From contig JBBSVW010000009.1 in NCBI GenBank assembly GCA_038046605.1, forward strand, positions 4,940-53,980: a stretch of 49,041 nucleotides of DNA, in the 5' to 3' direction. A model generated the notes under the pieces. That model had not been told where the DNA came from, searched no databases, and saw only the letters and a program-made list of their open reading frames with translations. Source of the stretch: Candidatus Micrarchaeota archaeon. GTDB taxonomy: Archaea > Micrarchaeota > Micrarchaeia > Norongarragalinales > SBBD01. This document shows, piece by piece, positions 22,393-40,083 of this stretch. Every line of letters starts with the position of its first letter. The first letter of the stretch is position 1. The position numbers and the translations under genes are program-made.

Positions 22393-24177
22393 TTAGACCA
22401 TATCCCCCGAATTCGACTTTTTCTGGCTGAAATTGCCCTTCGAGGTTTCGAGATCATCCAATTTGGAGATGAAATCGCGCCGGAGCTCCTTCATTTTCTG
22501 GTCGTTTTCCTTTTCGAGGTCGCGCAGGGCCCTTTCCATATCGTTCAGGTGGTGCTCGAGCTTTATCAGGGACATATCAAATACGATAAGCTTTTCGTTG
22601 ACGCCCTTTTGGAGGTTTGAAAGATCGCCCTTGGTGATGGTGCTAGCAGAAAGCGTTCTTAGCGAATAGACCTCCTTTACAAGGTCGCGCACAACCGAGG
22701 TGTTGTCGGCAACATCGGAAACGGCGGAATCAAGCTTGCGCTCGGATTTTTGGAGGTAGTCCTGCGTTTTGGTTTCAATGGTTTTTAGGCGCTTATCAAG
22801 CTCGTTTGCCTCGCCTGCGAATTCCTTGCTCTCAAAACCCATATCGCCAATAGTTTTGGATATTTTTTCCCCGGTTGCTTCGACTGATTCCATGCGCTTT
22901 TCATAATCGGAAATGACTTGGTTTTGCGCCTTTTCGGCACTTTCCATTTCCCCAAATTCCTTGGCCAATTTCCCGTTTTCCACCTGCGCCGCTTGGAGGT
23001 CGGCCATGATTTTCACAAGGGAGGCAATGTCCTTGCGGGCCTTATCGATGTCGGATTTGGAGGCGTTAAGCTGGGAAATTGATTTTTCAGTGCCGGAGAG
23101 GCGTTTTTCGCTTTCCTCAAATTCGGAAGCGGCTTTTTCGAGGGAGGAAATTCTGCCGTCAAAATCCTTCTTGAATTTGAGGCTTTCGGAGAGAATGGAT
23201 TTTTGAAGTTCAGATTGCATGGCATTTATCTTATCCGAGGCTGCTTCCGCATTTGTGATTTTTTTAAGAATACCCTTCTCGGATTCCTCGATCCCCTCTT
23301 TTGCTTCCTTTAAAATATCCGTTTTGAGCATTTCGGATTTGGCAACCGCCTTGTCCACCTCAATGATCTTGGAATCGAGCGATTCGCCGTATTCCTTCAG
23401 TTCGCCCTTCAATTTTAGGAAATCGGATTTGCTGGCGGAACTATCCACCTTCACCTTGAATACATTGAAATCCTTCATTATGTCCTTGAATTCGGAATCG
23501 AGCTCCTTTACATGGTCAAATACCTTCTGGTACTCGTAAAAATGCTGCTGGAAATCCGCGTGGATGGCCTCGATCTTGTCAGCGCGCTGGTCCATCTTGT
23601 TTTGAATTTGGAGGGCGGTTGAGAGCTCGGTTTTGACCTCCTCGTTCAATTTAAGCATGGTTTCAGAGCCGCGTATGACTTCTGTTCGCTGCCGCAAATC
23701 CTTTAATTCATCCACAAGCCTTTGCTGCATTGCCGCAAACTTCTCCTCCATCCCCTTGGCGGCCTCAATTTTTGCCTCCAGTTTCTTTACCTCCATCATC
23801 AGCCGCTCTGGCTGGACCATTTGAATAAGTTCAATTGCCTTTTCCGCCTGCACCTTGATTGTGGCACCGTCGCGCTCCGAATCAAGAACGGTTGCACGGA
23901 TTTCCCCGACCTGCTCTGAAAATTTCGAAAAGCGCTCATCAGTGACCTGCTTGTTTTGCTTCATGAGCTCTATTTGCACTTTGAGCAGTTCCACATCCTT
24001 CTCGAGCTGCACGATCGTGCGGTCCTGCGAGAGGGAGTTGCTTTTGGGTTTCTCCGCCTGCTGGGAACGCGCCTCATCCTCATAGCGCTCCTCGGAGGAT
24101 TTCATCATCATATCCTCCCTTGCCTGCAGCTCCTCTTCGGTTGGCTGCTTTTTCATGACGCCATCAAGGATTCCCAT
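22393..24177 (-). CDS. Long coiled-coil cytoplasmic protein, likely co-transcribed with the giant gene
   Basis: Heptad-rich E/K/L sequence; starts 6 bp after the giant-gene stop, with a GAGGA RBS overlapping that TGA. Confidence 0.8.
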   Translation of the reverse strand: MGILDGVMKKQPTEEELQAREDMMMKSSEERYEDEARSQQAEKPKSNSLSQDRTIVQLEKDVELLKVQIELMKQNKQVTDERFSKFSEQVGEIRATVLDSERDGATIKVQAEKAIELIQMVQPERLMMEVKKLEAKIEAAKGMEEKFAAMQQRLVDELKDLRQRTEVIRGSETMLKLNEEVKTELSTALQIQNKMDQRADKIEAIHADFQQHFYEYQKVFDHVKELDSEFKDIMKDFNVFKVKVDSSASKSDFLKLKGELKEYGESLDSKIIEVDKAVAKSEMLKTDILKEAKEGIEESEKGILKKITNAEAASDKINAMQSELQKSILSESLKFKKDFDGRISSLEKAASEFEESEKRLSGTEKSISQLNASKSDIDKARKDIASLVKIMADLQAAQVENGKLAKEFGEMESAEKAQNQVISDYEKRMESVEATGEKISKTIGDMGFESKEFAGEANELDKRLKTIETKTQDYLQKSERKLDSAVSDVADNTSVVRDLVKEVYSLRTLSASTITKGDLSNLQKGVNEKLIVFDMSLIKLEHHLNDMERALRDLEKENDQKMKELRRDFISKLDDLETSKGNFSQKKSNSGDMV

Positions 24178-24183
24178 AATTCC

Positions 24184-27100
24184 TCACGCGATATCCTTAT
24201 TCTTATCATCCTTTCTTGATTCCAAACCTGCATCATCCTTTTGAGGTTTTGAAATATCAGCAAGGCCCAGCTTTATTGGCTTATCCTTATCTTCGTCCTT
24301 TTCTGCTTTTGTATTATTTGTGGTAGCTGGTTCACCACTTGCATTACTTTCCCGCCTGATTTCCCCGCCTAAGCTCCCAATCCCAAGGTCGGAAAAATCA
24401 ATCATCCTATCCGGCTTCCGTTTCGATTTCCTCTTCATCCCCTCGATTTTCTGCTCGAGGGATTCGAGGTATATTTCAACTATATTGAACGCGCCCTTCT
24501 TAACCTTATCCCTGGCAAGGTTAATTTCCAGCTCCAAATCCAAAACATCCTCGCCCTGGCTGCGAAGTTTTTCCATCTCGAACTCCAACTTCTCAACCTT
24601 GGTGTTGTACTCCTCATATTGGGAAAGTTCCGTATCGGATAGCCTAACGATGTTGTGCAAAAGCGGCCTGAAGGATACAAAGTAGGGCTGGCCGTTGTTA
24701 TATTCTGAATTTTGGACCATTCCAGATCCAATGCTCTCCTTCACTATGGAACGCGCGGCATCCTCGCCGAATTTGAGCTTTAGCCTCTCAAGGTCTCCTT
24801 CATATTTCGTGCGCATTTGTATTTCCGTGCCGATGTTCGCCTTGATTTCACCCACGAAATCCGAAAGCACCTGCGAAATGAGGACCATTCCAACCCCCCA
24901 TTTGCGGAACTCACGCGCTCCGCGCTCGATTTGGATGAACCCCTCGCCCCTTCCGCCGAATTTGGGAAGCAGGCGGTGGACTTCATCATAAACAAGGAGC
25001 AATTTGAGCTCTGGCGATTCGGTAAGGCCAGCTGCAAAAACCTGCTTTATTGTGTTTGCAACGAATGTCTCGTGATCGGCAAACGAGAGCTTGTTCATGA
25101 CAAAAATGGTCGCCTCGCCAGGCTTTGCAACTTTCCGGATGTCGATTGGCAAGTTGGGGTCGCGCACAACAAAGATGTTGCCCTTGAAGGCGCGCGCGCT
25201 ATCGGTATTGAGGCCGTAGTGCTTATATTGCGAAAGCATGTCACGGTTCTTTTGGGGGCGCAAAAAGCCCGTCCATTGCGCGGTTGGATCGAAAATCAGA
25301 ACGGAAATATTTTTCATGAGCGCCTCCTCAGCAATGACCTGCGCGGCGACGGTTTTTCCTGAGCCGGTTGCGCCTGCAATCAGGACGTGCGTTTGCAGCT
25401 TATCCAGTGAAGCGAACGCGCGCACCTTGGATTCGGCAATTAGGCCCAAGAACCCCGAACGCGGCCCGGGCTCCGGGAGTTTGGTGAAATCAACCCTGGC
25501 AATGTACCTGCGCTTCTTTTGCGCAATTTGGTATTGGCGATAGTAAGTGATGAAAGAGGCTGCGAGAATCAGCAGTATGGGCAATAGCTGCCAAAGGGAG
25601 AGCGTGCCGAACAATTTGCTGGACCATATTGATGCCTGCACCTTGAAATATGAGATGGCGGAAACCTCCCTAAGCTTTCCTCCCTCGACAGAATATAGCA
25701 GGATTCCGCGTACAACAAACCTGCCGTTGCGCGTTTCCCTTGGAATTTTTACCGCCCGGATGCTGTTATAGGTTGTTTGGAACGAAATCGATTCGGTTTC
25801 GCTTTTGCTTAGTATTTCATCCGTGACGGGATCCACCAGTTCAAGGGTGAATTGGCCCGAAATTTCCTTTGGTTCGCCCAAATTATACAGGCTCAGCTCC
25901 ACCCGAAGCGTTTCGCCCGGATCCAGGGTATCCACCAAAGGCTGCAGCCTCAAATCTATCAGCCGATCCTCCTTCTTTTCAAGGACACGGACAGTTACAG
26001 GTATTGAAATCCTGCCGATCTCATTTGCCAATTGGAGCTCCCCAAAAAAGTTTCCTGCCCTTGTACCATCCGGAATTGAGCCAAAAACCAACAGGTCGGT
26101 TTCGTGGAGGCGGTTTAGCTTGATAGTTTTTGTCCCTGTTGTAATAAAGGGCCTAATTCCCCCCACCATGGAAACATTTATCTCTGAGGAAATATTCAAC
26201 AAGTTTTTAATGTGGATTGCGCTTTGGGTGCTTTCGCCGGGGTAGAGCTCAAAAGTGAGGCTGGAAACGCCGGGCTCAAGCCCGATGCTTTCCGTCTTGT
26301 TTTCCTTAAGGAGTTTTTTGAGCTCCTCTAACTGTGCGGTGATGTTGTCGGCTTTGGGCGTTGCGCTTGGGGTTGCAGTGGCGGGGGGAGGATTATAACT
26401 GCCGCTTGAGCCGCCGGAACTTCCGCCGGTCGTGGTCGTGCCTCCGGGTGCGGGCGTTGGGGTTGGCGCAACATACTGCACAAGCGCGAATGCGGAAATG
26501 TTATTCGCAAACGATGAGAAATTCGCGGATATGATGTTCGAAATGGAATTTGTAGTGGTATTGAGCAGGTAATCCCAGCTTCCCACACAAGTGCGTGAGG
26601 CATAGGTGTAATTCGCGCATTGGTAAATCCGGAGGAGCGATTCGTCGGTGATGCTTGAGAGCAGTGGAGCATAATCAATCACGAGCGAGCCATTTGTTGG
26701 CGCCTGGATTATCGCCGCAAAGCCCGCCTTGGCGCCTGCGATTTGCGATGAGATGTCCGAACCGGTGAAATTGTCGAGGGTGATGAAACCCTGGTTGATC
26801 GTATTGAAATCAACCGAATTTATGGTGGCGTTGTAGAAGAGGAATTTGATCCCAAGCTCGTACCATTTTGCCCTAAGGGACTTGTTATAGTGGCCCGTGG
26901 CGTTGGTTGTGAAATTATCTAGGTTGCCATCGGTGGAATTCCTGATGGAGAAGTTTACGAAAAGAAATTGGCCTTCAAGATTTTGGAGGGAGCCATTGAA
27001 TTGGCGCGTTTGGTAGATTTCAAATGAGCCATTCAGGGAGGAGTTGGAGTTGCCGGTTGTATCGTTCGCAGCGTAATTTATCGTATGGAGGCCAAGGGAT

Positions 27101-30100
27101 GTGAAATTATATGACCCGATGAAAAGCTGCCTTGTGGAATTGAATGGCAATGAGAAGTTGGATGCAGTGCCGTTGGGGAATGTCAATATTGCGGTTGCAT
27201 TCGCTGGCTGGAAATTATCTGTCGCATTTAGCACTAGGGTTGTGTTTGAATAAAGCTCCGTATCATTCGAATCTTCTGATATCATCCTTGGGGGGGTTAT
27301 ATCCCTGTAGAAAATTGCCGAAGCATTCGTAATGTTCTTGGCGAGGAAGACATTTCCGTTTGTAAAGTTGGCTTTTACCGTAATGTTATGGTATGTCGCA
27401 TCAGTAAGTGATGGGGCGGTGCAGTTGAGATTCGTGAAATTGCCGCTTGTGGAATTCGAGAATATGGCGCATGCCGACCCGTCCCCAAATACGCTCCACG
27501 TAGTATTGATGGTTTGGTTTTGCCCGCCGAAAACCAGCCTTGCGGTAATGTTGATGGGATCCCCGGCAAGCACTTGGGAGGGGGCGTAGATCGCATGCAC
27601 ATGCACCTCTACAGTGAACGAATTGAAGGTGATGTTTACAAGCCGCGCAATCGAGCCATTTCCTTCACTTATATTCAAAACACCCATGTATTGGCTGTTT
27701 GAATCAGGTACCGTATAATTTATTGGGACCGCAAAGGATTGGGAGGAATTCAGGTATTTTGATTGATTCAAAAGGTTTGAGAATGAGGTCATGTTTCCGG
27801 TCAAATTGAATGTAAAGTTAAGGAGGGCATCGGAAGTGCCCGAATGGGTTATTTGGGCCTGCGAATTGATTGACGAATCTCCCGCAATCCCATTTATTGT
27901 GATATTGTTAAGGTTTAGGCCCCATGTGTTGTTGTAGGGTATTGTAAGATTTACTACAAATGTGCGGGATATTGCGCCTGCAGTGATGTTTATTGTGAAA
28001 TTCCTAAATCCGGATGACGAATGGTAAAGCGTCGAAATATTGAAACTTATATTCGCGCTTCCAAGGGCGGAGATGTTTCCTTGGGTATTATTGAAATTTA
28101 CGCTGAAATTTGCAAATGGGGTGGAATAAGTGATGTTGTAATTGGTGATGTTGTCATTCCCATTTGGCGAAATTTCCAGCCATTCACTCTGGTTTTGCCC
28201 ATGCTGCAATGAGATGGATTGGTTCGAAATTGAGATTGAAAAGTTGGCATTCTGAAGGGCCGTAATTGTTATATTCTGGCCCCAGATGTGCGCAATTGTG
28301 CCGTTGGGGTTCCTGAAAGAGGCATTTGGCGTGAAATAATAGATCCCATAGGATCTGGGCGCAATTGTGATATTGAATTGAGTGAGATTAATCGAACTGC
28401 CATTGAGGTATGGAATTGTCGGAATGGCATTGAAGCTCCAGTTTGCAAGCGTATCCGTTGCATTCGATGCCCTAGCAAGCATTCCCGACAGGTTTATTGA
28501 ATAAGCAGAAACAAGGCCGGTATTGTTTGTTGAGATGTTCAGGATCAGCGAATAATTGGCGGCATTGGTTATGCCAGAAACATTGGTGGAATTGCCAAGG
28601 AGAAGAAGGCTGGTATTCCCAATCACTTCGAATTGGATTGAGGTTGAATTTAGCTGGCTAGAACGGTCGCGGATGAAGAATGTGGCATTGTAAATTCCAG
28701 TCACATTCGTCATATTGAACGGGTAGGTGTAATTCTGCGCATCAAGGCAAGCGCCGCCGCAAATTTGGGCGGTGTTAAGCGTTTGGTTTGTGGCATTCAA
28801 GGTATTGTTTGTCCCATCGGGCCTTGAAATGTTGAATTGTGCGTAGTCAAGGTTTAGCCCCCAAAGCTCATCATCCGTGGCAATAGCGCTTAGCTTGATT
28901 GTGCCATTGAATTCTACGTAGGTTCGCAGGGCATTCCCAACAAATGTTGCATTTTGGGAGAATTTGGGAGGGGCATTTGTAATATTGAAGAAGAGGATGG
29001 TTGAATTTGACGTGGGCAGAGCCGTGGAATTGGACATGGAAATTTGGACGGCGTAGCCATCCGTTATGTTCGTATCCCCAACGGAAGTTTTCATTATTGT
29101 AAAAGAAGTTGAGGAATTTTTAGGCGCCGAAACGGTTGATGGATTTGCGGGTATGCCCTGGCCAGCTCCGCAGAAATCCTGACCCGATGGGGGGCCGCCA
29201 ATGCAGCTTGCCCTTCCGCCAAAATCGGCATAACCGATTGTGAAGGAATGGTTGGCATTTCCGGTATTATTGATAGTAATCGTGCCAACTACTCCTGATT
29301 CGGAAAGACCAAAGTCCTTTGTTTGGTTGGCACCTGGAAGGAAATGCCATGAGGTGTCTGTTGGCACATGAACTGTTAGGTTTAGGGTGCCATTTGCATT
29401 GTAGCCGGAAATGTTGATGATGCCAGTATAATTGCCAGGCAATTGGCCAAATGGAACGGATACATTAAGGTAAACGGAGTAATTTACCCCTTCGGTGATA
29501 TTTGGAATTGTTGATGGGCTAAGGGATATCCAGTTTTGGGGAATTGTGCCGCTTATGAACGAAACAGTTAGGTTAACAAGCTTGATATTGCCAGTTGAAT
29601 TGATGAGGAACGAAGTGATATTTACCTTGCCATGCCCAGTTGTTAGGTTTAGGAGGGGCTGGATGGAAATGCCTGGAGAAACATTTACCGTGACATTGAT
29701 GTAAGTTGCCCTCCCTTCATTGGAGGTTATCTTGACAAGGGCTGAAAAGATTCCTGCAATGAAGTCAAGCACGTTGATTATTATTTGGAGGACAGCTCCC
29801 GATCCTTCTGAAATCGAAGTCCAGGAAATGGAGGAGGAATTCCAGCCGGATGATGGGGAATTGAACGAAATCCAGGAAGATGGTATTGTGCTATTGATTA
29901 CGGAAACGCTTACATTGGTAATTGGCGCATTGCCGGGGTTGCTTATGGTTGTTGAAATGGATTGGTTATTTGTTAGGGAAATATTGGCAGTGACTGCTGC
30001 TGGTGAGGAGTTGATTTGCGGATTTACCTGGATTTGCAAATCAATGTAAGTGCTTGTGGAATTCTTCCCATTTGTTTGGTCATCGGCGGTTAGATTGATT

Positions 30101-33100
30101 TTGCCAATGTAGGTTGCTGGGGTATAATTGCCTATTAGCACATCAACCTGCAAATCGTATGTAAAGCTAGGGGATTGACCAGGATCAATTAAGGGGGATA
30201 AACTAATCCAGGAAGGGGGAATATTGCCCGCAATTAGGGATGCAGTTATATTGAAAATTTGGATGTTTCCTATGTTTGTCACAGTTACGGTAGTGGAATT
30301 TGTTTGGCTTAGGTTTGAGGAAATGTTGATTATTGATACGCTTGTTGAAAGCGCCGGATTTGATGAAACAATCACGTTGGAGCGGTTTGCAATGGTGTAA
30401 TTTGTCCCATTATTATTGGTCCATGAAGCATTCCAAGTTATTGTGTGCGTTCCGGGGGTAGCACTGCCCGAAATGGATAGATTGAAGGTGGCATTGCAAT
30501 TTCCAAACGGAGATACCATTGGCCCGCAGCTGGAGGAAATCCTTGCAATCGAGGTTATTGACGAGGATTTGGTTGTGAAATTGATGGCTGGGAAGTGCAT
30601 TGTCCCATTTAGCTTGTTTTCAAGGGAAACATTCATTAGAAATATTTGGCCTGATGCGTTCAGGTTTGAAATTGTGCGGTCTGGAACAAGGATGGAGCCA
30701 TTAGTGATTGCCTCCTCGAAATATGAGTAGAAAATTTCAGAGGATGAATCAAGGAATGCAGAAATGTTGGATGCGGTGATGTTTATGGAGTAATTTCCGC
30801 CCCTAAGTTCACTTGGGAATGCAAAGCCGATGGTGCAATTGCCATCCATTGCGATGCAGCTTTTGGTTAGTGTAGCATTGGTGATGCGGTTTGTCAGGTT
30901 GAATGTGGCATTCCCGTTAATGCCGTACATCGCGGTTGCGTTTATTTCATTGAGGAACGCGGTAACCGAACCATTCGAGCCGAATAGAAGGCGGTATTTC
31001 AGGTATCTTGCGGGGGTTCCGTTAATTATCGAGAGGGTGGAATTGGATAGGTTTTCAAATGGGGAGAAGGTGGAATTGTCCGCCGAAACTGCGGCCTGTA
31101 TTGCTAGTGAGGAGTTGATAGGGACTGTTGAATTCCAGCTTATTTTCCAGTGCGCATTCGCATATCCGGCATCAATTGTCCTTTCGAAAATTCCGGAGGC
31201 GAAATAAGAGGTGTTCGAGGACTGGTCGGTGAAATTGAGGCTGACATTGCCGGAATTGATTGTGATATTAGTCCCATTCCCAGATGCAAATTGGATGGCA
31301 TCCGCATCGTTTGTGAAATTGGCAAATGATGTACGGCTAAAAATCACCGTGATGTTGGCAATGCCGTTCTTGGTGTATGTCTGGTTTGCGGAAAGATGGT
31401 TTACGGTTGTGTTCGCCCAGAACTCCAGGAAGAATGTGCCGTTTTGGGCGGAATTGCCGGCGGAATCATTGACTACCAGGGTGTAATTCCAGGCTCCGAG
31501 GGGCTGATTTGTTAGGTTTAGGAAGCAATTGGAGCTAACCCGATCCATCGTCAGGTTGTGGGCGGTTCCATTGTTCCAAACCAAGGTGCAGGTTTCGGGA
31601 TTCGCCTCGGAGAATGTCGCGTTTGCAAACACCCAATCCCCGTAAATTCTGGAATTGTTGGAAGGAGTTGGCAGGACAAATTGAAGCTGTGAGGGCAGCG
31701 CCGTATCCAGCGACACGAAGAAGGTGCCGTTTTGCCCTATGTTGCCCGCGGAATCGTTTACGAATACAGTATAATTCCAATTTCCCTGCGGCTGCGAGGT
31801 AATATTTATTGAGCAATTATTTCCCACTCGGCTGGCCGTAAGGTTGGAATAGCCGCTTGAATTCACCCACTGGACGAAGCAGGAATTGAAGTTGGTTTCG
31901 ATGAACGAATAAGTTATGTTTACCCAGTTGCGGCTGAGGTTGGAGTTATTGGCAGGGGTTGGGGGCAAAATATTCAATGATGAGGGGATGGTTGTGTCAA
32001 CCGTGACAAAGAATGTCCCATTTTGGCCGTAGTTGTTTGTGGTGTCATTCACAATTATAGTATAGTTCCATCTTCCATCGGGCTGATTTGTGAGGTTGTA
32101 ATAGCAGTTCGTGCCCTCCCTGCTCATCGTAATATTCACAAACGAGCCATTGTTCCATTGCAAATTGCAGGTGTGGGGGAATGTTTCGGTGAAAGTTGTG
32201 TTCACGTAAACCCAATTTCTGTTGGTGAAGGATGCATTGGCAAGAGTGGGGGAAACCGTGCGGATATTGGTTGGCGCATTGGAATCTATATTCACGAAAA
32301 AGCTGCGGTTTGAACCCACATTACCCGCAGAGTCGTTCACAAAGAGATCGTAATTCCATTGCCCATCCGGCTGGTTTGTGATGTTTATGGAGCAGTTGTT
32401 TCCGGCTCTGCTCATGGTCAGATTCTGGTAGGTGCCATTGTACCATTGGACCCAGCAGGCGCTTGGATTTAATTCAGTGAATGTGAAGTTGACGTAAATC
32501 CATGTGTTGCTTGTATTCGAGTTATTTGTAAGCGTTGGCGAAATGGGTTGGAGGCTGGATGGGGGGGTGAGGTCAATTGTAATGTAGAATGTCCCATTTG
32601 TTGCCATGTTTCCAGCTGAGTCATTCACAATGATCGTGTAATTGTGGACGCCGTCTGGCTGGAGGGTAACGTTTAGGTAGCAGGAATTCCCGGATCTTAT
32701 CATGGTTAGGTTTTGGAAAGATCCGTTGCCCCATTGCAATAGGCAGTTGTTGGGGTTGGTTTCGGTGAATGTTGCATTCACAAATACCCAGGTGTTGGCA
32801 GTGTAGGAGGCGTTTGCAAGGGTTGGGAAGACGGTCCGTATTGTTGTTGGAACGGCGGTGTCAATTGTTACGTAAAAAGTGCCGTTTTGGGCGAAGTTGC
32901 CGGCGGAATCATTGACAATTATCGTGTAGTTGTGGGTTCCGTCGGGCTGTCGGGTAACATTGAGGTAGCAGCTGTTTCCATCACGGGTCATGGTCAGGTT
33001 TTGGAGCGTGCCGTTGCCCCATGAAAGCAAGCAGTTGCCCGGATTTGTTTCAGTGAATGTGAAATTGACAAAGGTCCAATTGTTTGGGGTGAAGGAGGCA

Positions 33101-36100
33101 TTTGCAAGGGTCGGGGAAACTGTCCGGATGGTTGTTGGAAGTACGGTATCGATAGTTATGTAGAATGTCCCGTTCTGGGCGATATTGCCGGCGGAATCAT
33201 TGACAATTATCGTGTAGTTGTGGGTTCCGTCGGGCTGGGAGGATACGTTGATGTTGCAGTTGTTCCCATCCCGTGTCATTGATAGGTTTTGCAGGGTTCC
33301 ATTGCCCCATTGCAGGATGCAGTTGTTAGGATTGGTTTCCGTGAAGTTGAAACTTATGTTAACCCAGTTGTTGGATGTGTAGGAGGCATTGGCTGGGGTT
33401 GGGGGAACTGTGCGGATGGTTGACGGAAGGGCGGTATCAATAGTCACATAGAATGTCCCGTTCTGGGCGATATTGCCGGCGGAATCATTGACAATTATCG
33501 TGTAGTTGTGGGTTCCGTCGGGCTGGGAGGATACGTTGATGTTGCAGTTGTTCCCATCCCGTGTCATTGATAGGTTTTGCAGGGTTCCATTGCCCCATTG
33601 CAGGATGCAGTTGTTAGGATTGGTTTCCGTGAAGTTGAAACTTATGTTAACCCAGTTGTTGGATGTGTAGGAGGCATTGGCTGGGGTTGGGGGGATTGCA
33701 ATAATATTTGAGGGGGCAAATGTGTCGCGAAGGATCAGGGTCACGATCCTCGAATAATTCACTTCGTGAAGCGAGGTATTGTAGATATCCGAAAATGCGG
33801 CGCTGAAATTATACAGGGTTAGGGTTGTATTCACGGAGTTATTGCCAATGAATTCCGTAACCGCGGAAATAACTGTCAGGCCTTGGCCGTCAGTAGCTAG
33901 ATCGTTGAAATTGGTCGCCCCACTCGTGGAATTGGTTATGTTCACGTATGCTCCTGGAATCGGGTCAAGGGTCGAATTGACGGCCTGGACCTGGATGTAA
34001 TTTTGAATGGTAAGGCTGGCATTGCTTGCAAAACCAATGCGGGACCTGTTGAAGGAGTTGTTCAGGAAGGTATTGCAGCAAATTCTGGATAGGTTTATAT
34101 CATAGCCATTGGGCGCCGGTATGAACACATTGCTTGTGAAATTGTTATCGACGTTATTTGGAAAAGTGCCTGTTGTTGAATAAAAATAAAGGTTTGAAAT
34201 GGTGTTGTTCCTGAATGTGTTGTTTTCAACAGTGTTAGAAATTATTTTATTCCCATTGTCCCCATCAAGTTCAAAGCCGAAATTGGTGTTGTTTTCGAGG
34301 ATATTGTATTTGAACAGGTTGGTGCTTGAGCTGAATTGCGCTCCCAAAACGATGCCTTTGAGGTTCCTGTAAAGGAGGTTATGCGAAACGTTGGAGGAGG
34401 TATAGGCATCAAGCTCAAGGCCATTGTTCACCGTATCCGAGATATTCGAATTGTTCAAGAAAAGCCCAGTAGAGCTTGAAAGGTACAACGCACTTGATAG
34501 GTTCATGAACTCCGAATCCAAAACGGTGATCTTTTGGAAATTATACGAATAAAATCCGGTGCCGGTCCTTTTCCCCTGGATGAACGCACGGGTGATGTTT
34601 CCCGTGTTGCCCGTGTCGAAATAAATGCCGTAGGTTGTGCCCGTTGGGACGTTCCGTATTGAGGAATTGAACAGGTAGAAGAAATTGGAATTGGATCTGG
34701 CTAGAATGCCTATGGAATAGTTGGAAATGGTCGAGAAAATGATGGAGAAGTTTGTGAAGCCGTTGAGGGAAATTGCGGTTCCCGAGGCTGTGCCCGACAA
34801 GGTCACATTTGAGACTATTCCCGCAAACGAGCTGTTGAGGTTGATGCCAGCCGAGCTGTTGAGGATGGTGGAGTTGAAAATTGTCAGGTTGGATGAGTCA
34901 CTAGCAAAGAATGCATAGGTGAAATTGATGAAAGTGGATTGCAGAACCGAAACATTGCTCGATGAGGTTGCGTTTATACCAAAGCCTACGCCCCGTCCAA
35001 TGAAGGTATCGTTTACAAATATGGAATAATTTGAATAGACCAACCGGGTCCCATTGGAGGCATTGTTCTGCTCGGAGTTAGATATTGAGAAATTTACCGA
35101 GGCGTTGAGGTTGATGCTGACTTTGTTGCTTGTGAAGATGGTGTAACCAACGGTCAGGTTGTGGGATTGGCTTGCATTAATCCCAAGGCCCGTGCCGTTG
35201 CCAAAGAATGTGCTTGCTGAAATGTTGGTAAAATTGGAACCGGCCGCCATAAGGCCATTGCCGTTTTGGGAAAGGGTTGTGTTTATCAGAGTAAAGTTAA
35301 TGGATTTACTGACAAGAATGCCGTGCTCGAATTTGCTTATGATGCAGTTCCTGACAAGGACATTGCTTCTTCCTGTGACGTTTATCCCCGCCATTCCTGC
35401 TGCATTGTTTCCGGAAATCGTATAGCCCCTGCAGTCGATTTCAACACTGTCAGCGGTTATGTTCAGGCAGGTGCCAGTTGTGCTTATGGATGCGGATAGG
35501 CTTCCGGACGAGGCAATATTGCCGCAGCCGGCGATAAGAGGGATGATTACGAGTACGGTGTTTGAAGCGTTAACTGGATGGAGGGTCCGATTCGATACAC
35601 CCCCATATGAGGCGCTGAAATTGTAATAGGTCAGGTTCGAAATTGCATTTGTGGAATTGCCTAAATTGCTCCCTATGAATTCGGTCACCAGCACGAATGA
35701 AGTTAGCCCTGATGAATCGGTTACCAATCCCGTATAATTCGTGGCATTCGGGAACTGGCCGTTTGTGATGTTCGCGAGCGCACCGGGTATGGGATTGAAC
35801 AGCTGGTCCACCACCTGAATTCTCAGGTAATTCTGTATCGTGAGGTTGTTGATTCCGGCACCATACGACAGGCGGCTCCTGTCGAAGGTGTTGTTGACGA
35901 AATAATTGCTCTGCGACTTGACAAGCCGGATGTCATTGCCGTTTTGTGAACTTACGAAGATATTGCTTGTAAAATTATTTCCTGTTGAGAAAGGCTCAGA
36001 GCCCGTAGTTGCAATGGATATGAGAAGGTTCTGGGCAGTATTATTCCTGAAAGTATTGTTTTCTACCTCGTTGTACGCCATATAGTCAAAGCTGTTGGTT

Positions 36101-39100
36101 AATTCAAGACCGGTATTGGTGTTGTTTTCAAAGACGGTTGTATAAAACTTGCTGCCGTTTATACCGTTGAATGTTGCGCCCTTGGCATTAGTGTGCAAGG
36201 TTGAATTGATTAGGGTTAAGTTCCGGATATCTGAGCCAGTGATGCCGTTGGAAAAATTGCTTATTACGCAATTCTTTACAACCAAATTAATGTTAGAATT
36301 CAAATTAACCCCGTTTCCGCTCCCTGCGCCCGTAATCGAGTGGCCGTTGCAATCCAGGGATACCGAATTCTGCCCGAAAACAAAGCAATTGCCGCTTGCA
36401 ACGACATCAGAGACCAAAGTCGTCGGAGAGGAAATGGTTGAGCAACCGGTGGCTGGGATTACTAGGAGGACGGATTTGCTTTCATTGACCGAAGCGAGCG
36501 TGGAATTTACAATTCCGCCATATGAGCCGCTAATATTGTAGTATGTTAGAGTCGTGTTCACGGTATTGTTTCCGATGAATTCCGCCACAGCCTCAAAGTC
36601 AGTCAAGCCTTCAGTGCCTGTGACCAAGCCTGTGAAGTTGGTCGCACCGAGAGTGGAATTTGTAATATTGACAAGGGCGCCCTGCAAAGGAAAGCCATTT
36701 TGGCCCGTAACATTTGCACGGATGTAATTTTGAAGCGTAAGGTTGTTGATCACGCCGTTTGCTGTGGAGTAACCCAAAAGGCTCCTGTTGAAAGTATTGT
36801 TTAGGAAGGTATTGCTTTGCGAGCCGGAAATATTGATGTCGTAGCCTAAGGGGGATGCATAAAAGATGTTGTTTGTGAAGTTGTTCCCAGAAACGGTAGG
36901 TGCAGTGGCGATGCTGCCGCTCACTATCAGGTTGGTTGGGCTATTGTTCCTGAAGGTATTGTTTTCAATTAGGTTGAATTGGGCAGACGTGAAAGGGGCC
37001 GTTATTTCAACACCTATGCCCGTATTATTCTCGAAAATATTTGAATATATTTTAATGTAATTACCGGTACTAATTCGCAGCCCGAGAGAATTGCCATAGA
37101 AGAAGTTGGATTTAACTAGGCCGTACGACCCGGTTATAAGCAAGCCGTTTGTGCTATTCGATATATTCGTTGTTAGTAAATTGAAACCACTAAATGAATC
37201 TTCCGTTATCCCCGTAGAGAAATTGGCTATCGAGGAATTCTGAACAGTCATGTTTTCAAAACTAGCGAGGGAGATGGCGGTTCCAGCCCTCGGGCTGTTC
37301 AGAAAAGTACTGCTATCTATGAGGCCGTCGCTAGCGCTATCCAGGGAAATTGCCGTAGTAGTGTTTGAAAAGTTTGTATTCCGAATAGATATATTACTTG
37401 AACCAGTGCCGGAAAATCCAGTTGTGTAATTGGCAATGGAGGAGTTCTGAAGAGTGAGGTTGTCGAATATATTTAGGGAGATGGCGGTTCCGGTTTTGAT
37501 GTAATTCCTTATTGTTGTATTTAAGAGGGATGCAATCTGGCCGTTCTGTAAATCCAAGCTGGTAGTGCCGTTAGTGAAGACGGTATGCAGAATTGTCAAG
37601 TTGTTTGAACCGTTTAAATATGCGCAAGTTGGGCAGGAATAGAAATATGAACTCCGGATTGTCAAGTTGCTTGAGTTTGTGGCGTTCAGGCCTAATCCCG
37701 AGCCATTGCCGTAAAAGGAGTTCGAGGAAATGTTTGCGAAGGGGGAATTGGCCAATCGAAGGTCATTAGGGCTTTTGTATATCGTCGTATTTATAAGCGT
37801 GAAATTGAGTGAATTATTTACAAAAATGCCGTCGCTGAAATTCGAGATGATGCAGTTCTTGACGGTGACGTTGCTCTTGCCGGTCACGTTCACGCCCATA
37901 CCGGATCCATTCCCAATAACTGCGTTGCCGCCGCAGTCCAGCACGATGTTGTTGCTGAGGATGTTGTAACAATTCCCAGTGGCATTCGCAGGGTACCCTA
38001 GAGTGAAGCTGCTGGTGAGGTTTTCGCAGGTGCCCACGGTTTCATTGTAGAAATCCATGAAGGTGTCTGAACGATTGTAAAATAGCTCGAAATCTACAGA
38101 AAATGAGCATGATTCTGTAACAAGCAAGAACCGCGTACCGATCCTTTCGCCAGGCAGCAGAGTAGTGTTTTCGCTTCGAGGAATAGTAACATTGACTGCC
38201 TTGGTTTCGCCAGCGGATAGGCAATTAAAATTAGTACCTAAATTCGCCGTGGATATCGTAAGATACGATCCGGATTGATTGTACTTCATTATTTCTGCAT
38301 AAACGGTATATGACCCCGCAACGCCACTTCCCTGACCAAGGCGCGCCGAGACCCTGTAAATACCGCTTACATAAGTCTTTTCCCCAAAACTTGTTACATT
38401 GAAATGTGGCGAATACCAACTTGTCGAAAAATATGTGCCATCACTGATTACAACTGATTCATTATATAACGCGGTATCTTCTCCGGGCGATGTCACATTT
38501 AGTCTTTTTCTAAAACCGCTTAAGTCGGAAGTCAGATTAGAAAAATACCAACGAAGAAGGGATGCGTAATTGTTCGCATATGCAACGGCATCCCCAAACC
38601 GGAATTCCAAACGGTGCTTTCCCAATGTGTGAACTATGCTCTCCTCGCTTCCCTCAAATACGCAGGAATAATTATCCATGAAAACTGAAGTGCCGTTAAA
38701 TGTTGGCGAGAGGTCGGTTTCCCCGCATTTAAGGAACTTAAATTCCAAATCCGTACCAAAGGATGTATTGTCTATGGCAGTTATTGTTAGGGGTGCAGAG
38801 CCGTTAGTCGTAAACCTAACAGTCCAGTTGCTCCCAACGACAGGGAAACTTTGCAAATTTAATATTGTGATATTGGCGCCGGCATAGCCGGAGAAATGAT
38901 CGACTGAAAATGTTACAGATCCATCCGATTCAATGAAGGGAGTTTCCGATATATGCCAATTGGAGCATTCGCCGGTGATTCCATCAATTCCCTCGCAGAT
39001 TAAGATTTTTTCCGTTTTGGAGGAGGAAGGGAGTATGATTTGCGCCTCATCGAATTCGAGTGGTTCAAAACCAATGAAATCCGTTGTGAGGGCTGCAACC

Positions 39101-40083
39101 GTGTTGGAGGAGTCCGATTTTTCCAAATCAATTTTTGCTGGCGCAGTAAGGAAAATGGAATTCAGCATTGAGGGGTCCTTTAGGCCTTTTATTGAAATCG
39201 AGGATTCCGGCTCGGAATCAATATCCTTGCCAAATGCCCTGATATTCCGTTTAAAGGCACTTTTTATGGAGATTTCCAGATCGAAAATAGTCTCATTGGT
39301 CCCGTTGTTTTCCCGGACCCTTTTTTTTAGCGACTTGAATGAAATTTTGCTGTTTTTTGAAAATTTACCGCGCAGAATTTCCAGATTAACTGCATCATCG
39401 TCCAAAATCAAGGTGGTGTTGGATAGGTTAGCATCAATGGTTGAATTTGTCAGGTTTAGGATTGAAGTCGTGTTGGTATCGTTTAGGGGAATGCTGATGT
39501 TCAATTCGGATTCATTTGCATGGGAATAATTTGCATCAATAGTTGGGGATGGCGAAATCGAAACATCGGGTGATGGTGAAATAATAATTTCCGGAGTGGG
39601 CGAGGGAATAATTGAAGGGAGGGGCGAGGGCTCGAATGTCACGGATACATTAGGTGAAACAAAGGGAATCGCACTTGGAGAAATTATTATTTCCGGGGTA
39701 GGTAAGGGAAAAATTATTGCATCTGGAGAAGGTGAAAAAGTAACTTCGGGTGTAGGCGAAAATGTGGGCTCGATTGATGGTGAAGGTGCAATAGTTGGCA
39801 TTGGCGCAGGGGTCGCATAAATTGAAGGCTCCGGCGAAGAATTGGCATTTGGATTGGGCGTTGGCGTAAAATCGGCATTTTGGGAAGGTGATGGGGAAAA
39901 TTGGATAAGTTCAGTTGGGGAGGGGGTTGGCATGGGGGTTGCATTGGATAACATGCCCGATGGATAAGCTGATAAATCATCAGAATCCTGGCCAACTCCT
40001 CCAACTATAATTAACGCAAAAAACAGGGCGGCAACTAGGACAAAAGGCGCAAATAGGAAAACTCTTCCGCGCATGTGGATCAA
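24184..40083 (-). CDS. Giant (5299 aa) surface glycoprotein fused via a TM helix to a HerA/VirB4-like (DUF87) ATPase
   Basis: N-terminal hydrophobic segment, P/S/T repeats, beta-helix modules (LDC.G..I.G), eight ~96-aa Ig-like repeats and dense N-x-S/T sequons. TM at ~25540-25600, then THVLIAGATGSGKT, LIFDP, LLVYDEVH, GAREFRKWG and LISQ. Confidence 0.9.
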   Translation of the reverse strand: MIHMRGRVFLFAPFVLVAALFFALIIVGGVGQDSDDLSAYPSGMLSNATPMPTPSPTELIQFSPSPSQNADFTPTPNPNANSSPEPSIYATPAPMPTIAPSPSIEPTFSPTPEVTFSPSPDAIIFPLPTPEIIISPSAIPFVSPNVSVTFEPSPLPSIIPSPTPEIIISPSPDVSISPSPTIDANYSHANESELNISIPLNDTNTTSILNLTNSTIDANLSNTTLILDDDAVNLEILRGKFSKNSKISFKSLKKRVRENNGTNETIFDLEISIKSAFKRNIRAFGKDIDSEPESSISIKGLKDPSMLNSIFLTAPAKIDLEKSDSSNTVAALTTDFIGFEPLEFDEAQIILPSSSKTEKILICEGIDGITGECSNWHISETPFIESDGSVTFSVDHFSGYAGANITILNLQSFPVVGSNWTVRFTTNGSAPLTITAIDNTSFGTDLEFKFLKCGETDLSPTFNGTSVFMDNYSCVFEGSEESIVHTLGKHRLEFRFGDAVAYANNYASLLRWYFSNLTSDLSGFRKRLNVTSPGEDTALYNESVVISDGTYFSTSWYSPHFNVTSFGEKTYVSGIYRVSARLGQGSGVAGSYTVYAEIMKYNQSGSYLTISTANLGTNFNCLSAGETKAVNVTIPRSENTTLLPGERIGTRFLLVTESCSFSVDFELFYNRSDTFMDFYNETVGTCENLTSSFTLGYPANATGNCYNILSNNIVLDCGGNAVIGNGSGMGVNVTGKSNVTVKNCIISNFSDGIFVNNSLNFTLINTTIYKSPNDLRLANSPFANISSNSFYGNGSGLGLNATNSSNLTIRSSYFYSCPTCAYLNGSNNLTILHTVFTNGTTSLDLQNGQIASLLNTTIRNYIKTGTAISLNIFDNLTLQNSSIANYTTGFSGTGSSNISIRNTNFSNTTTAISLDSASDGLIDSSTFLNSPRAGTAISLASFENMTVQNSSIANFSTGITEDSFSGFNLLTTNISNSTNGLLITGSYGLVKSNFFYGNSLGLRISTGNYIKIYSNIFENNTGIGVEITAPFTSAQFNLIENNTFRNNSPTNLIVSGSIATAPTVSGNNFTNNIFYASPLGYDINISGSQSNTFLNNTFNRSLLGYSTANGVINNLTLQNYIRANVTGQNGFPLQGALVNITNSTLGATNFTGLVTGTEGLTDFEAVAEFIGNNTVNTTLTYYNISGSYGGIVNSTLASVNESKSVLLVIPATGCSTISSPTTLVSDVVASGNCFVFGQNSVSLDCNGHSITGAGSGNGVNLNSNINLVVKNCVISNFSNGITGSDIRNLTLINSTLHTNAKGATFNGINGSKFYTTVFENNTNTGLELTNSFDYMAYNEVENNTFRNNTAQNLLISIATTGSEPFSTGNNFTSNIFVSSQNGNDIRLVKSQSNYFVNNTFDRSRLSYGAGINNLTIQNYLRIQVVDQLFNPIPGALANITNGQFPNATNYTGLVTDSSGLTSFVLVTEFIGSNLGNSTNAISNLTYYNFSASYGGVSNRTLHPVNASNTVLVIIPLIAGCGNIASSGSLSASISTTGTCLNITADSVEIDCRGYTISGNNAAGMAGINVTGRSNVLVRNCIISKFEHGILVSKSINFTLINTTLSQNGNGLMAAGSNFTNISASTFFGNGTGLGINASQSHNLTVGYTIFTSNKVSINLNASVNFSISNSEQNNASNGTRLVYSNYSIFVNDTFIGRGVGFGINATSSSNVSVLQSTFINFTYAFFASDSSNLTIFNSTILNSSAGINLNSSFAGIVSNVTLSGTASGTAISLNGFTNFSIIFSTISNYSIGILARSNSNFFYLFNSSIRNVPTGTTYGIYFDTGNTGNITRAFIQGKRTGTGFYSYNFQKITVLDSEFMNLSSALYLSSSTGLFLNNSNISDTVNNGLELDAYTSSNVSHNLLYRNLKGIVLGAQFSSSTNLFKYNILENNTNFGFELDGDNGNKIISNTVENNTFRNNTISNLYFYSTTGTFPNNVDNNFTSNVFIPAPNGYDINLSRICCNTFLNNSFNRSRIGFASNASLTIQNYIQVQAVNSTLDPIPGAYVNITNSTSGATNFNDLATDGQGLTVISAVTEFIGNNSVNTTLTLYNFSAAFSDIYNTSLHEVNYSRIVTLILRDTFAPSNIIAIPPTPANASYTSNNWVNISFNFTETNPNNCILQWGNGTLQNLSMTRDGNNCNINVSSQPDGTHNYTIIVNDSAGNIAQNGTFYVTIDTALPSTIRTVPPTPANASYTSNNWVNISFNFTETNPNNCILQWGNGTLQNLSMTRDGNNCNINVSSQPDGTHNYTIIVNDSAGNIAQNGTFYITIDTVLPTTIRTVSPTLANASFTPNNWTFVNFTFTETNPGNCLLSWGNGTLQNLTMTRDGNSCYLNVTRQPDGTHNYTIIVNDSAGNFAQNGTFYVTIDTAVPTTIRTVFPTLANASYTANTWVFVNATFTETNPNNCLLQWGNGSFQNLTMIRSGNSCYLNVTLQPDGVHNYTIIVNDSAGNMATNGTFYITIDLTPPSSLQPISPTLTNNSNTSNTWIYVNFTFTELNPSACWVQWYNGTYQNLTMSRAGNNCSINITNQPDGQWNYDLFVNDSAGNVGSNRSFFVNIDSNAPTNIRTVSPTLANASFTNRNWVYVNTTFTETFPHTCNLQWNNGSFVNITMSREGTNCYYNLTNQPDGRWNYTIIVNDTTNNYGQNGTFFVTVDTTIPSSLNILPPTPANNSNLSRNWVNITYSFIETNFNSCFVQWVNSSGYSNLTASRVGNNCSINITSQPQGNWNYTVFVNDSAGNIGQNGTFFVSLDTALPSQLQFVLPTPSNNSRIYGDWVFANATFSEANPETCTLVWNNGTAHNLTMDRVSSNCFLNLTNQPLGAWNYTLVVNDSAGNSAQNGTFFLEFWANTTVNHLSANQTYTKNGIANITVIFSRTSFANFTNDADAIQFASGNGTNITINSGNVSLNFTDQSSNTSYFASGIFERTIDAGYANAHWKISWNSTVPINSSLAIQAAVSADNSTFSPFENLSNSTLSIINGTPARYLKYRLLFGSNGSVTAFLNEINATAMYGINGNATFNLTNRITNATLTKSCIAMDGNCTIGFAFPSELRGGNYSINITASNISAFLDSSSEIFYSYFEEAITNGSILVPDRTISNLNASGQIFLMNVSLENKLNGTMHFPAINFTTKSSSITSIARISSSCGPMVSPFGNCNATFNLSISGSATPGTHTITWNASWTNNNGTNYTIANRSNVIVSSNPALSTSVSIINISSNLSQTNSTTVTVTNIGNIQIFNITASLIAGNIPPSWISLSPLIDPGQSPSFTYDLQVDVLIGNYTPATYIGKINLTADDQTNGKNSTSTYIDLQIQVNPQINSSPAAVTANISLTNNQSISTTISNPGNAPITNVSVSVINSTIPSSWISFNSPSSGWNSSSISWTSISEGSGAVLQIIINVLDFIAGIFSALVKITSNEGRATYINVTVNVSPGISIQPLLNLTTGHGKVNITSFLINSTGNIKLVNLTVSFISGTIPQNWISLSPSTIPNITEGVNYSVYLNVSVPFGQLPGNYTGIINISGYNANGTLNLTVHVPTDTSWHFLPGANQTKDFGLSESGVVGTITINNTGNANHSFTIGYADFGGRASCIGGPPSGQDFCGAGQGIPANPSTVSAPKNSSTSFTIMKTSVGDTNITDGYAVQISMSNSTALPTSNSTILFFNITNAPPKFSQNATFVGNALRTYVEFNGTIKLSAIATDDELWGLNLDYAQFNISRPDGTNNTLNATNQTLNTAQICGGACLDAQNYTYPFNMTNVTGIYNATFFIRDRSSQLNSTSIQFEVIGNTSLLLLGNSTNVSGITNAANYSLILNISTNNTGLVSAYSINLSGMLARASNATDTLANWSFNAIPTIPYLNGSSINLTQFNITIAPRSYGIYYFTPNASFRNPNGTIAHIWGQNITITALQNANFSISISNQSISLQHGQNQSEWLEISPNGNDNITNYNITYSTPFANFSVNFNNTQGNISALGSANISFNISTLYHSSSGFRNFTINITAGAISRTFVVNLTIPYNNTWGLNLNNITINGIAGDSSINSQAQITHSGTSDALLNFTFNLTGNMTSFSNLLNQSKYLNSSQSFAVPINYTVPDSNSQYMGVLNISEGNGSIARLVNITFNSFTVEVHVHAIYAPSQVLAGDPINITARLVFGGQNQTINTTWSVFGDGSACAIFSNSTSGNFTNLNCTAPSLTDATYHNITVKANFTNGNVFLAKNITNASAIFYRDITPPRMISEDSNDTELYSNTTLVLNATDNFQPANATAILTFPNGTASNFSLPFNSTRQLFIGSYNFTSLGLHTINYAANDTTGNSNSSLNGSFEIYQTRQFNGSLQNLEGQFLFVNFSIRNSTDGNLDNFTTNATGHYNKSLRAKWYELGIKFLFYNATINSVDFNTINQGFITLDNFTGSDISSQIAGAKAGFAAIIQAPTNGSLVIDYAPLLSSITDESLLRIYQCANYTYASRTCVGSWDYLLNTTTNSISNIISANFSSFANNISAFALVQYVAPTPTPAPGGTTTTGGSSGGSSGSYNPPPATATPSATPKADNITAQLEELKKLLKENKTESIGLEPGVSSLTFELYPGESTQSAIHIKNLLNISSEINVSMVGGIRPFITTGTKTIKLNRLHETDLLVFGSIPDGTRAGNFFGELQLANEIGRISIPVTVRVLEKKEDRLIDLRLQPLVDTLDPGETLRVELSLYNLGEPKEISGQFTLELVDPVTDEILSKSETESISFQTTYNSIRAVKIPRETRNGRFVVRGILLYSVEGGKLREVSAISYFKVQASIWSSKLFGTLSLWQLLPILLILAASFITYYRQYQIAQKKRRYIARVDFTKLPEPGPRSGFLGLIAESKVRAFASLDKLQTHVLIAGATGSGKTVAAQVIAEEALMKNISVLIFDPTAQWTGFLRPQKNRDMLSQYKHYGLNTDSARAFKGNIFVVRDPNLPIDIRKVAKPGEATIFVMNKLSFADHETFVANTIKQVFAAGLTESPELKLLLVYDEVHRLLPKFGGRGEGFIQIERGAREFRKWGVGMVLISQVLSDFVGEIKANIGTEIQMRTKYEGDLERLKLKFGEDAARSIVKESIGSGMVQNSEYNNGQPYFVSFRPLLHNIVRLSDTELSQYEEYNTKVEKLEFEMEKLRSQGEDVLDLELEINLARDKVKKGAFNIVEIYLESLEQKIEGMKRKSKRKPDRMIDFSDLGIGSLGGEIRRESNASGEPATTNNTKAEKDEDKDKPIKLGLADISKPQKDDAGLESRKDDKNKDIA
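31420..33730 (-). repeat. Tandem array of eight ~288-bp Ig-like repeats inside the giant gene
   Basis: Repeat unit D(T)xxP...PTxAN...F(T/S)ExN..C...W.N...VND(S/T).(G/N)N...NGTF. Segments 33161-33405 and 33449-33693 appear identical. Confidence 0.85.

Follow-up and report, generated by a model that had tools for sequence, protein, structure and literature searches.

How DPANN archaea attach to a host cell, and how material passes between the two, is an open question, for which giant surface proteins of the SPEARE type are the main candidate. These proteins were named in nanohaloarchaea by Hamm et al. 2019 (PMC6642349); in the main text of that paper they lie mostly outside the cell with one transmembrane (TM) segment near the C-terminus, their cytoplasmic part is the most conserved region, ectodomain and motor appear in separate size fractions, every SPEARE ectodomain is said to have a laminin-G domain, and similar sequences are found in Woesearchaeota, Aenigmarchaeota, Micrarchaeota and Altiarchaeales. 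The main text of Reva et al. 2023 (PMC10266531) re-annotated the cytoplasmic part as an ATPase resembling VirB4/TraG with a coiled coil behind it, set out the ectodomain-TM-ATPase-coiled-coil layout, proposed these "giant membrane-anchored" extracellular proteins as a secretion 'straw', and noted a VirB4/TraG-family gene downstream in two nanohaloarchaea. Here we analysed a stretch of 49,041 nucleotides (the window) from a Candidatus Micrarchaeota archaeon (assembly GCA_038046605.1, contig JBBSVW010000009.1, positions 4,940 to 53,980 of the forward strand), in which a gene for a giant surface protein with a C-terminal ATPase is followed by a gene for a coiled-coil protein. The giant belongs, as one of its Micrarchaeota members, to the DPANN-wide SPEARE-type family, a kind already published. 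As judged from sequence, its motor and the downstream, putatively cytoplasmic coiled-coil protein are a two-gene module.

The motor and its coiled-coil partner

The TM-ATPase module of the giant was found, C-terminal in each case, in at least 164 proteins of 2,914-9,274 amino acids (aa) (E <= 1e-3, among 5,296 candidates). An exhaustive search returned 1,026 cluster representatives at E <= 1e-3, of which 368 reached E <= 1e-30; among the 150 representatives listed, which were 356-6,253 aa long, the match fell towards the C-terminus. Named relatives came from Micrarchaeota, with 77-83% identity in the module, and from Woese-, Pace-, Aenigm-, Parv- and Nanoarchaeota and Ca. Nanosalina, and the genome loci were labelled likewise. 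The Ca. Nanosalina proteins P0084 and P0069 match the module at E 3e-116 and 1e-121, the former with 47% identity over 82% of the queried 500-aa module. Contig NAR1_11 (L060), the name of which has the same prefix as the SPEARE locus tag NAR1_1133 in PMC6642349, matches it with 48% identity over 414 aa (E 9e-138).

The motor contains a Walker A motif (GATGSGKT at residue 4904), a Walker B motif (VYDEVH at 5031), an arginine-finger region (REFRK at 5057) and ISQV at 5069. An alignment of 24 sequences showed invariance or at least 90% conservation for the lysine of Walker A, the Asp-Glu of Walker B, R5057 and R5060 (R257 and R260 of the module), and the three C-terminal helices were also kept. 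The ATPase is predicted to be catalytically intact. An AlphaFold2 model of the module (pLDDT 79.9, pTM 0.72) consisted of the TM helix, a short linker, a RecA-like core, the three C-terminal helices and a disordered tail. When this model was compared with the PDB by Foldseek, HerA came first (9x1m, 7e-12; 4d2i, 1.4e-11), followed by Sir2-HerA and DUF4297-HerA and, lower down, by FtsK (4.3e-09) and the coupling protein TcpA (8e-09), while a PDB sequence search of the module returned YjgR and HerA chains. Pfam gave DUF87, the HerA central domain (5.9e-12, 46.6 bits against a cut-off of 23.2), and HerA_C (6.8e-09). The best NCBIfam match was CedD (8.1e-10), with 38 bits against a cut-off of 600 and confined to 48 residues around the P-loop (residues 94-141). 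The NCBIfam HerA models reached 19-27 bits against cut-offs of 800-970, VirB4_plasma 24.5 against 590 and TraC 24.5 against 567, and in Pfam TrwB_AAD_bind reached 21.5 bits over 43 residues and AAA_10 20.3 bits, under its cut-off of 27.5. The Pfam scan of the giant found no CagE/VirB4 N-domain, the model had no HAS-barrel domain, with about 45 aa between the TM helix and the first core strand, and the Pfam and NCBIfam scans found no protease or nuclease family at E <= 0.01. On these profile scores and this domain content, we place the motor in a putative family of its own within the HerA branch of the FtsK-HerA superfamily. Identification as HerA proper, VirB4, VirD4 or Ced was rejected, as the curated NCBIfam scores were far under the cut-offs and both the HAS barrel and the VirB4 N-domain were missing. 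These findings argue against filing the motor as an ordinary type IV secretion system (T4SS) ATPase.

The coiled-coil gene proved to be the constant companion of this motor. It lay directly downstream of the motor gene in 12 of the 14 genome loci having downstream DNA and in 13 of 22 metagenome loci (those with at least 1 kb downstream, the window excluded, fetched with a nanohaloarchaeal query). All five genomes without an adjacent partner encode one elsewhere (E 1e-55 to 4e-78). Among 201 sampled Micrarchaeota genomes, motor and partner core were present in exactly the same 13, at least one adjacent pair was present in 10 of them, and copy numbers matched in the genome of the window (G000) and in a genome of the same genus (G141). 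The corresponding counts for 201 genomes of the Nanoarchaeota phylum were 35 with both, 3 with the motor only, 6 with the partner only and 157 with neither; the partner core was located at most 3 kb downstream on the same strand, as read from coordinates, in 29 of the 35. The partner model is specific, as it matched none of about 335 motor-bearing proteins, several of which have long coiled-coil tails, and no fused motor-partner form was detected when the partner-core hidden Markov model was run against the ATPase-bearing proteins among 350 proteins. A 594-aa coiled-coil gene 6 bp after the giant gene, reported in a preliminary description of this DNA, was confirmed, and conservation of the gene pair, which had been left there as a point to check, is borne out by both the adjacency across loci and the genome-by-genome co-occurrence. 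No third conserved gene was found: genes downstream differ between distant loci, and open reading frames (ORFs) between motor and partner are kept in close relatives only. One such case is a 109-117-aa ORF between the giant gene and a short partner of about 290 aa in Nanoarchaeia-type loci, conserved only among close relatives (L010:5616-5963, L011:7674-8003, L015:1257-1610).

The partner protein is built around one conserved core of about 220 aa (aa 51-271 of P0002), in which a Glu, a Gly and a Pro are invariant in 21 sequences. The total length of partners ranges from about 290 to 1,235 aa, and in a second clade of giants the core lies mid-way in a partner of 1,023-1,235 aa, in which Pfam identified no informative domain. 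The core of the window's protein (aa 45-285) was modelled as an elongated helical rod (pLDDT 83.4, pTM 0.27), and a hydropathy scan of all 594 aa revealed no hydrophobic segment. Foldseek of the core model against the PDB gave 0 matches. Scans of 14 members with Pfam returned scattered coiled-coil families only, with SHOCT_2 in one of the 14, not the window's protein; a PDB-profile search returned designed and generic coiled coils only, and in NCBIfam ASRP scored 31 bits against a cut-off of 300. The nearest clusters in an Atlas search were unnamed Nanobdellota proteins, and of 12 partner relatives the 5 with a name were all annotated 'hypothetical protein', none of the 12 having a Pfam domain. 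The partner core thus appears, by sequence and profile comparison, to belong to no known family. Known coiled-coil families (SMC/Rad50, prefoldin, SHOCT, PspA and others) were considered for the partner and rejected, as no specific profile or fold match was significant. Hamm et al. 2023 (bioRxiv 10.1101/2023.02.24.529834), in the part of the preprint covered, described DPANN coiled-coil proteins (CCPs; NAR1_03220 and NAR1_01690) beside pilus genes; no type IV pilus gene was present in the 10 ORFs scanned around three stand-alone partner genes.

Table 1. Positions in the window of the giant gene, its domains, the partner gene and the genes that follow.
Feature	Position in window	Strand	Details
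Giant gene	24184..40083	-	5,299 codons + stop; TTG at 40083, likely true start ATG at 40074
Signal peptide / N-terminal hydrophobic segment	39982..40074	-	aa 4-34; MRGR + hydrophobic core; Kyte-Doolittle 2.97
Right-handed beta-helix/NosD-like modules	34384..38016	-	about aa 690-1900, limits approximate; Pfam Beta_helix and NosD
Tandem 288-nt (96-aa) Ig-like repeats in Big_13 region	32573..33692	-	aa ~2131-2504; 3.9 copies, 81% matches
Membrane-proximal Ig-like pair (CARDB/NEW3-like)	25618..26259	-	aa ~4609-4822; common to short forms of 670-800 aa
Single TM helix	25540..25614	-	aa 4824-4848, or 4828-4848 in a second scan, followed by KKRRY; from hydropathy and helix 30-57 of the model
HerA/FtsK-superfamily P-loop ATPase core	24637..25458	-	aa ~4876-5149; Walker A 25351-25374, Walker B 24976-24993, invariant R5057/R5060
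C-terminal helical (coiled-coil) region	24418..24636	-	aa 5150-5222; helices 350-375, 381-396 and 399-422 of the 499-aa module; pLDDT ~90
Disordered charged C-terminal tail	24187..24384	-	aa ~5234-5299; pLDDT < 50 for module residues 434-499
Coiled-coil partner gene	22393..24177	-	594 aa, no TM segment; start 6 nt past the giant stop
Conserved partner core	23323..24045	-	aa 45-285; four long helices; motifs SE.IGELR and VQPE(K/R)LM
purD	20929-22269	-	GARS_A 3.4e-52
Lon_C-only protein	19951-20739	-	262 aa; Lon_C 2.6e-11

Architecture of the giant protein and its family

The giant gene is a single open frame of 5,299 aa with zero internal stops, according to both the ORF listing and the translation. 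Such a frame is not expected by chance, since about 3 of 64 codons are stops and an open run of a few tens of codons would be expected. Translation likely starts at the ATG at residue 4, which restores the signal peptide, an N-terminus of MRGR followed by about 25 apolar residues (hydrophobic segment aa 9-29); the public gene call (P0003, 5,249 aa) begins at M51 (window 39931-39933) and is without it. The protein has the order of a type I membrane protein: signal peptide, ectodomain, immunoglobulin (Ig)-like pair, one TM helix, cytoplasmic ATPase and helical tail. The TM helix comes after about 4,800 aa made up of beta-helix and Ig-like modules that are rich in sequons. Pfam matched this part to Beta_helix (6.6e-42, nine stretches), NosD (8.7e-33, five stretches), Big_13 (4.6e-28) and NPCBM_assoc (1.7e-07). 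Asn, Ser and Thr make up 36.5% of residues 1-4780, and 367 of the 370 N-x-S/T sequons lie before aa 4600; the ectodomain is predicted to be heavily N-glycosylated, adhesin-like and lineage-variable. The ATPase is predicted to be on the cytoplasmic side, because the charge distribution is positive-inside, with 6 Lys/Arg in the 15 aa after the TM helix against 2 before it, and because sequons are nearly gone after the helix. The preliminary description had proposed this same order of modules and had required ATPase and ectodomain to lie on opposite sides of the membrane; the ORF, Pfam, motif and hydropathy evidence agrees with the former, and the charge and sequon distributions with the latter. 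An extra apolar stretch was seen inside the ectodomain at aa 3428-3453 (window 29725-29802, Kyte-Doolittle 2.11). A buried strand is more likely here than a second TM helix, since sequon density is equal on both sides.

The family also contains short forms, which are complete proteins of 670-790 aa with a signal peptide, about 250-330 aa outside the membrane, the TM helix, the ATPase and the tail. Altiarchaeota and other DPANN encode them, and DUF87 or HerA-like is the only annotation that they have. The membrane-proximal part of the giant (aa ~4609-4845) is 32% identical to a short-form ectodomain (residues 129-354 of P0127; E 9e-33). By these comparisons the family core appears to be small, consisting of two Ig-like domains, the TM helix, the motor and the helical tail; the thousands of adhesin-like residues would be a lineage-variable, swappable insert between the signal peptide and this core, whose membrane-proximal ectodomain the short forms share.

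In the same-genus genome G141 a stop-free frame of 12,372 codons from the first ATG, with 733 sequons (G141:C12:99310-136431), carries this ATPase module at its end and has a long-form partner gene after it. This frame exceeds 9,409 aa, the size given for the largest protein among cultivated archaea in the main text of Reva et al. 2023 (PMC10266531); its first ~45 residues resemble a small DNA-binding domain in frame, and the true start may be later. The window's own genome (1.64 Mb, 106 contigs, 90.7% complete) has a second giant paralogue at a contig end (G000:C35:210-1355; module 51% identical, open frame 2,757 aa) and, on another contig and again at its end, a long-form partner of 1,097 aa (G000:C17:7049-10339); the two are probably one locus split by assembly. 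At G086:C1:780510-796263, three tandem motor-bearing genes within 15 kb are followed by one partner gene; the motor matches of these copies are split in two at the same point (query residue ~202), a stop being counted in each frame, and an insertion of about 45 aa was seen at this point in L012. A DPANN motor was also found on a 4.3-kb contig binned as Verrucomicrobia (PXDC01000294.1), which carries a partner too, and on a 1.5-kb contig labelled Nitrospirae; both are probably mis-binned DPANN fragments.

Possible functions of the pair

Starting from the domain order, the topology signals, the conservation of catalytic residues, the homology to SPEARE and the linkage and co-occurrence of the partner, we favour with moderate confidence the reading that a ring ATPase sits under an adhesin and works with its coiled-coil partner at the contact with a host. 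The ATPase would assemble into a ring under the membrane, as in all studied relatives, and the ring would cluster the ectodomains at the site of host-cell contact. The partner may dock on the ring or be handled by it, as an adaptor, stator or substrate, and ATP hydrolysis could move a polymer (DNA or protein) or do mechanical work at the contact site. The ectodomain would act as an adhesin, not as a conduit, and any membrane channel would come from other components.

Several points weigh against this reading. Ring formation, ATP hydrolysis, partner binding and host contact are all steps that we infer. The partner is non-adjacent in about one fifth to two fifths of loci, and the 9 of 22 metagenome loci without an adjacent partner include contig NAR1_11, where the next genes are convergent. 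The co-occurrence samples consist of related, incomplete genomes, and the partner model was built partly from Micrarchaeota later found, so that the independence of these counts is overstated. The motor itself is patchy, being present in 13 of 201 Micrarchaeota genomes and 38 of 201 Nanoarchaeota-phylum genomes, and is an accessory, not a core DPANN trait; by family within Micrarchaeota, the module was detected in 5 of 5 genomes of the window's family and in 0/56, 0/36 and 0/37 of the three largest families sampled. Finally, the Pfam scan of the giant identified no laminin-G family in the ectodomain at E <= 0.01. Many relatives among the 164 giants carry PF13385/PF02210, and the laminin-G feature varies with lineage.

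As a tentative proposal, which we regard as possible, the membrane-anchored HerA-like ATPase and its coiled-coil partner could be a DPANN-specific, two-component cell-surface machine of a kind that has not been described, neither a T4SS, a Ced system nor a HerA-nuclease. The ring would work on or through the rod-like partner and so link ATP hydrolysis with a modular ectodomain that can measure anything from 250 to >12,000 residues. If true, such a machine could, for example, draw the membranes of host and symbiont towards each other or form the cytoplasmic bridge known from DPANN-host pairs.

Those members of the FtsK-HerA superfamily that have been studied translocate DNA or protein, and this established knowledge speaks for an alternative that we nevertheless consider rather unlikely, in which a hexamer bundles six ectodomains as a conduit and the motor either exports effectors or imports DNA or protein, in the manner of a minimal T4SS- or Ced-like system. 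It was put forward in the preliminary description, as a single-polypeptide attachment and translocation machine, and in the 'straw' of Reva et al. 2023 (PMC10266531). It would fit the membrane anchoring of the motor, which comes right behind a TM helix just as it does in coupling proteins and in CedB/CedD (PMC11868833, as far as covered), the rank of CedD as best NCBIfam match, the Foldseek matches to FtsK and TcpA, and the VirB4/TraG-family gene that the main text of PMC10266531 places downstream in two nanohaloarchaea. However, one TM helix per protomer amounts to six helices in a hexamer, and neither a polytopic membrane partner or VirB6/CedA-like channel gene nor a pilin gene or other conserved neighbour was found in the window or the related loci scanned. 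The scores of CedD, VirB4_plasma and AAA_10 are all far under their cut-offs. The short forms retain the motor and two Ig-like domains, which indicates that a long tube is not the conserved part, and beta-helix and Ig arrays would be adhesin-like folds. Of what the preliminary description proposed, the architecture and the gene pair stand, the assembly of six ectodomains into a tube is unsupported, powered uptake or delivery is speculation, and novelty cannot be claimed for a layout and a straw that were already in Reva et al. 2023 (PMC10266531).

Unlikely, in our estimate, is a role without transmembrane translocation, in which ring and partner together serve, inside the cell, as a scaffold or mechanical anchor by which the giant adhesin is clustered, put under tension or recycled. 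The sole conserved companion of the motor is a soluble, TM-less four-helix rod without channel-like features, which would suit such a role, as would its variable length around one core, since scaffolds often vary in this way; in Sir2-HerA and DUF4297-HerA, which were near the top of the fold search, effector oligomers also use the HerA ring as a platform. On the other hand, the strict conservation of catalytic and arginine-finger residues fits processive work on a polymer, and no evidence of partner binding was obtained; complex prediction of the cytoplasmic module (residues 58-435) with the partner core scored 0.00 with no verdict, which counts neither for nor against binding. To our knowledge, no member of the FtsK-HerA superfamily acts purely mechanically.

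We regard as very improbable the original SPEARE reading in the main text of Hamm et al. 2019 (PMC6642349), a restriction-type nuclease or helicase that degrades imported DNA: Pfam does report ResIII on the P-loop region (9.6e-06), but DUF87/HerA fits better, the fold search yields HerA, FtsK and coupling proteins, nuclease families are lacking at the threshold used, and the main text of Reva et al. 2023 (PMC10266531) rejected the same idea for the nanohaloarchaeal proteins.

That misassembly or a missed stop joined two separate genes can in practice be excluded. The near-identical 288-nt repeats inside the gene are of a kind that can collapse in assemblies, but they are distant from the junction and their collapse could alter the length, not the fusion, so that internal copy number is the only feature that the assembly could have wrong. 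The fusion is genuine, as the preliminary description had assumed, because the junction is conserved, residues on either side of the TM helix aligning in relatives (24 sequences), and because the ectodomain-TM-ATPase fusion recurs in the 164 giant proteins. In addition, the ATPase-TM-ectodomain stretch 24302-25779 is spanned by a Logan contig of one public run (X1) with 0 differences, and contigs of two public runs (X1 and X2) span the ATPase-TM-ectodomain junction and the one between giant stop and partner start, again with 0 differences, although these runs may be the source sample and would then not be independent support.

Neighbouring genes and comparison with known systems

The partner gene is followed on the same strand by purD and a gene for a Lon_C-only protein. 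The preliminary description was right about the presence of both, which is supported by the GARS_A and Lon_C matches. In 4 of 5 close loci a 444-451-aa ORF comes after the partner, inferred from size and position to be purD; more distant loci have other genes there. Neither purD nor the Lon_C gene is counted as a part of the system; a purD-sized ORF after the partner is confined to close relatives. A free-standing 277-aa LAGLIDADG_3 ORF (1.3e-07) is located at 18329-19162 on the minus strand, downstream of the Lon_C gene. The gene at 9329-14416 on the plus strand encodes a further large surface protein of 1,695 aa, in which 11 PEGA repeats (1.1e-141) accompany a peptidase domain of the M6 (immune inhibitor A) type. 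Divergent from the giant gene, at 40223-40983 on the plus strand, a 102-aa RHH/UPF0175 antitoxin-like ORF overlaps a 151-aa ORF without a family, and these could be a toxin-antitoxin pair.

In type VII secretion, the membrane-anchored FtsK-like ATPase EssC/EccC is encoded beside an all-helical hairpin substrate that has a conserved motif at the helix break. The likeness to the pair described here is an analogy only: the helical neighbour has about 100 aa there and 290-1,235 aa here, and no sequence or profile match was obtained between the systems.

HerA, represented by S. solfataricus HerA (4D2I), HerA-NurA (9X1M) and the Sir2-HerA and DUF4297-HerA defence complexes, provides the best structural and profile matches and has the same layout of Walker A, Walker B and arginine finger. 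The present motor differs in being membrane-anchored and in having no HAS-barrel, and a scan of 10 neighbouring ORFs gave no match to a NurA, Sir2 or DUF4297 family, no genome-wide search having been made.

T4SS coupling proteins, VirB4 and the crenarchaeal CedB/CedD (PMC11868833, in the part covered) share with it an N-terminal TM anchor followed by a HerA/VirB4-like ATPase, with CedD as the best NCBIfam match, and there is a functional analogy in DNA transfer between cells in contact. The differences are that the match is limited to the 48 residues round the P-loop, that the VirB4 N-terminal domain and a nearby CedA/VirB6-like gene are lacking, and that here a huge ectodomain lies across the TM helix.

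The SPEARE proteins are closest, with the same giant extracytoplasmic part, single TM segment near the C-terminus, conserved cytoplasmic P-loop ATPase and coiled-coil tip. The SPEARE type is now seen in a groundwater Micrarchaeota lineage with a different ectodomain, which consists of beta-helix/NosD and Big_13 modules and in which the Pfam scan (E <= 0.01) found no serine-protease or toxin-like domain, as it found no laminin-G. The motor-partner linkage is not described in the main-text literature searched, and the main texts of the two SPEARE papers (PMC6642349, PMC10266531), as covered, do not mention the partner. The layout and the straw idea were already known, and what is added here is the constant coiled-coil partner of the motor. 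The motor thus has one constant, unannotated companion, which provides a defined pair for experiments, and their strict pairing is what deserves follow-up. For its two genomes, the main text of Reva et al. 2023 (PMC10266531) reports a VirB4/TraG-family gene downstream, whereas the locus described here has the coiled-coil partner directly downstream of the giant gene.

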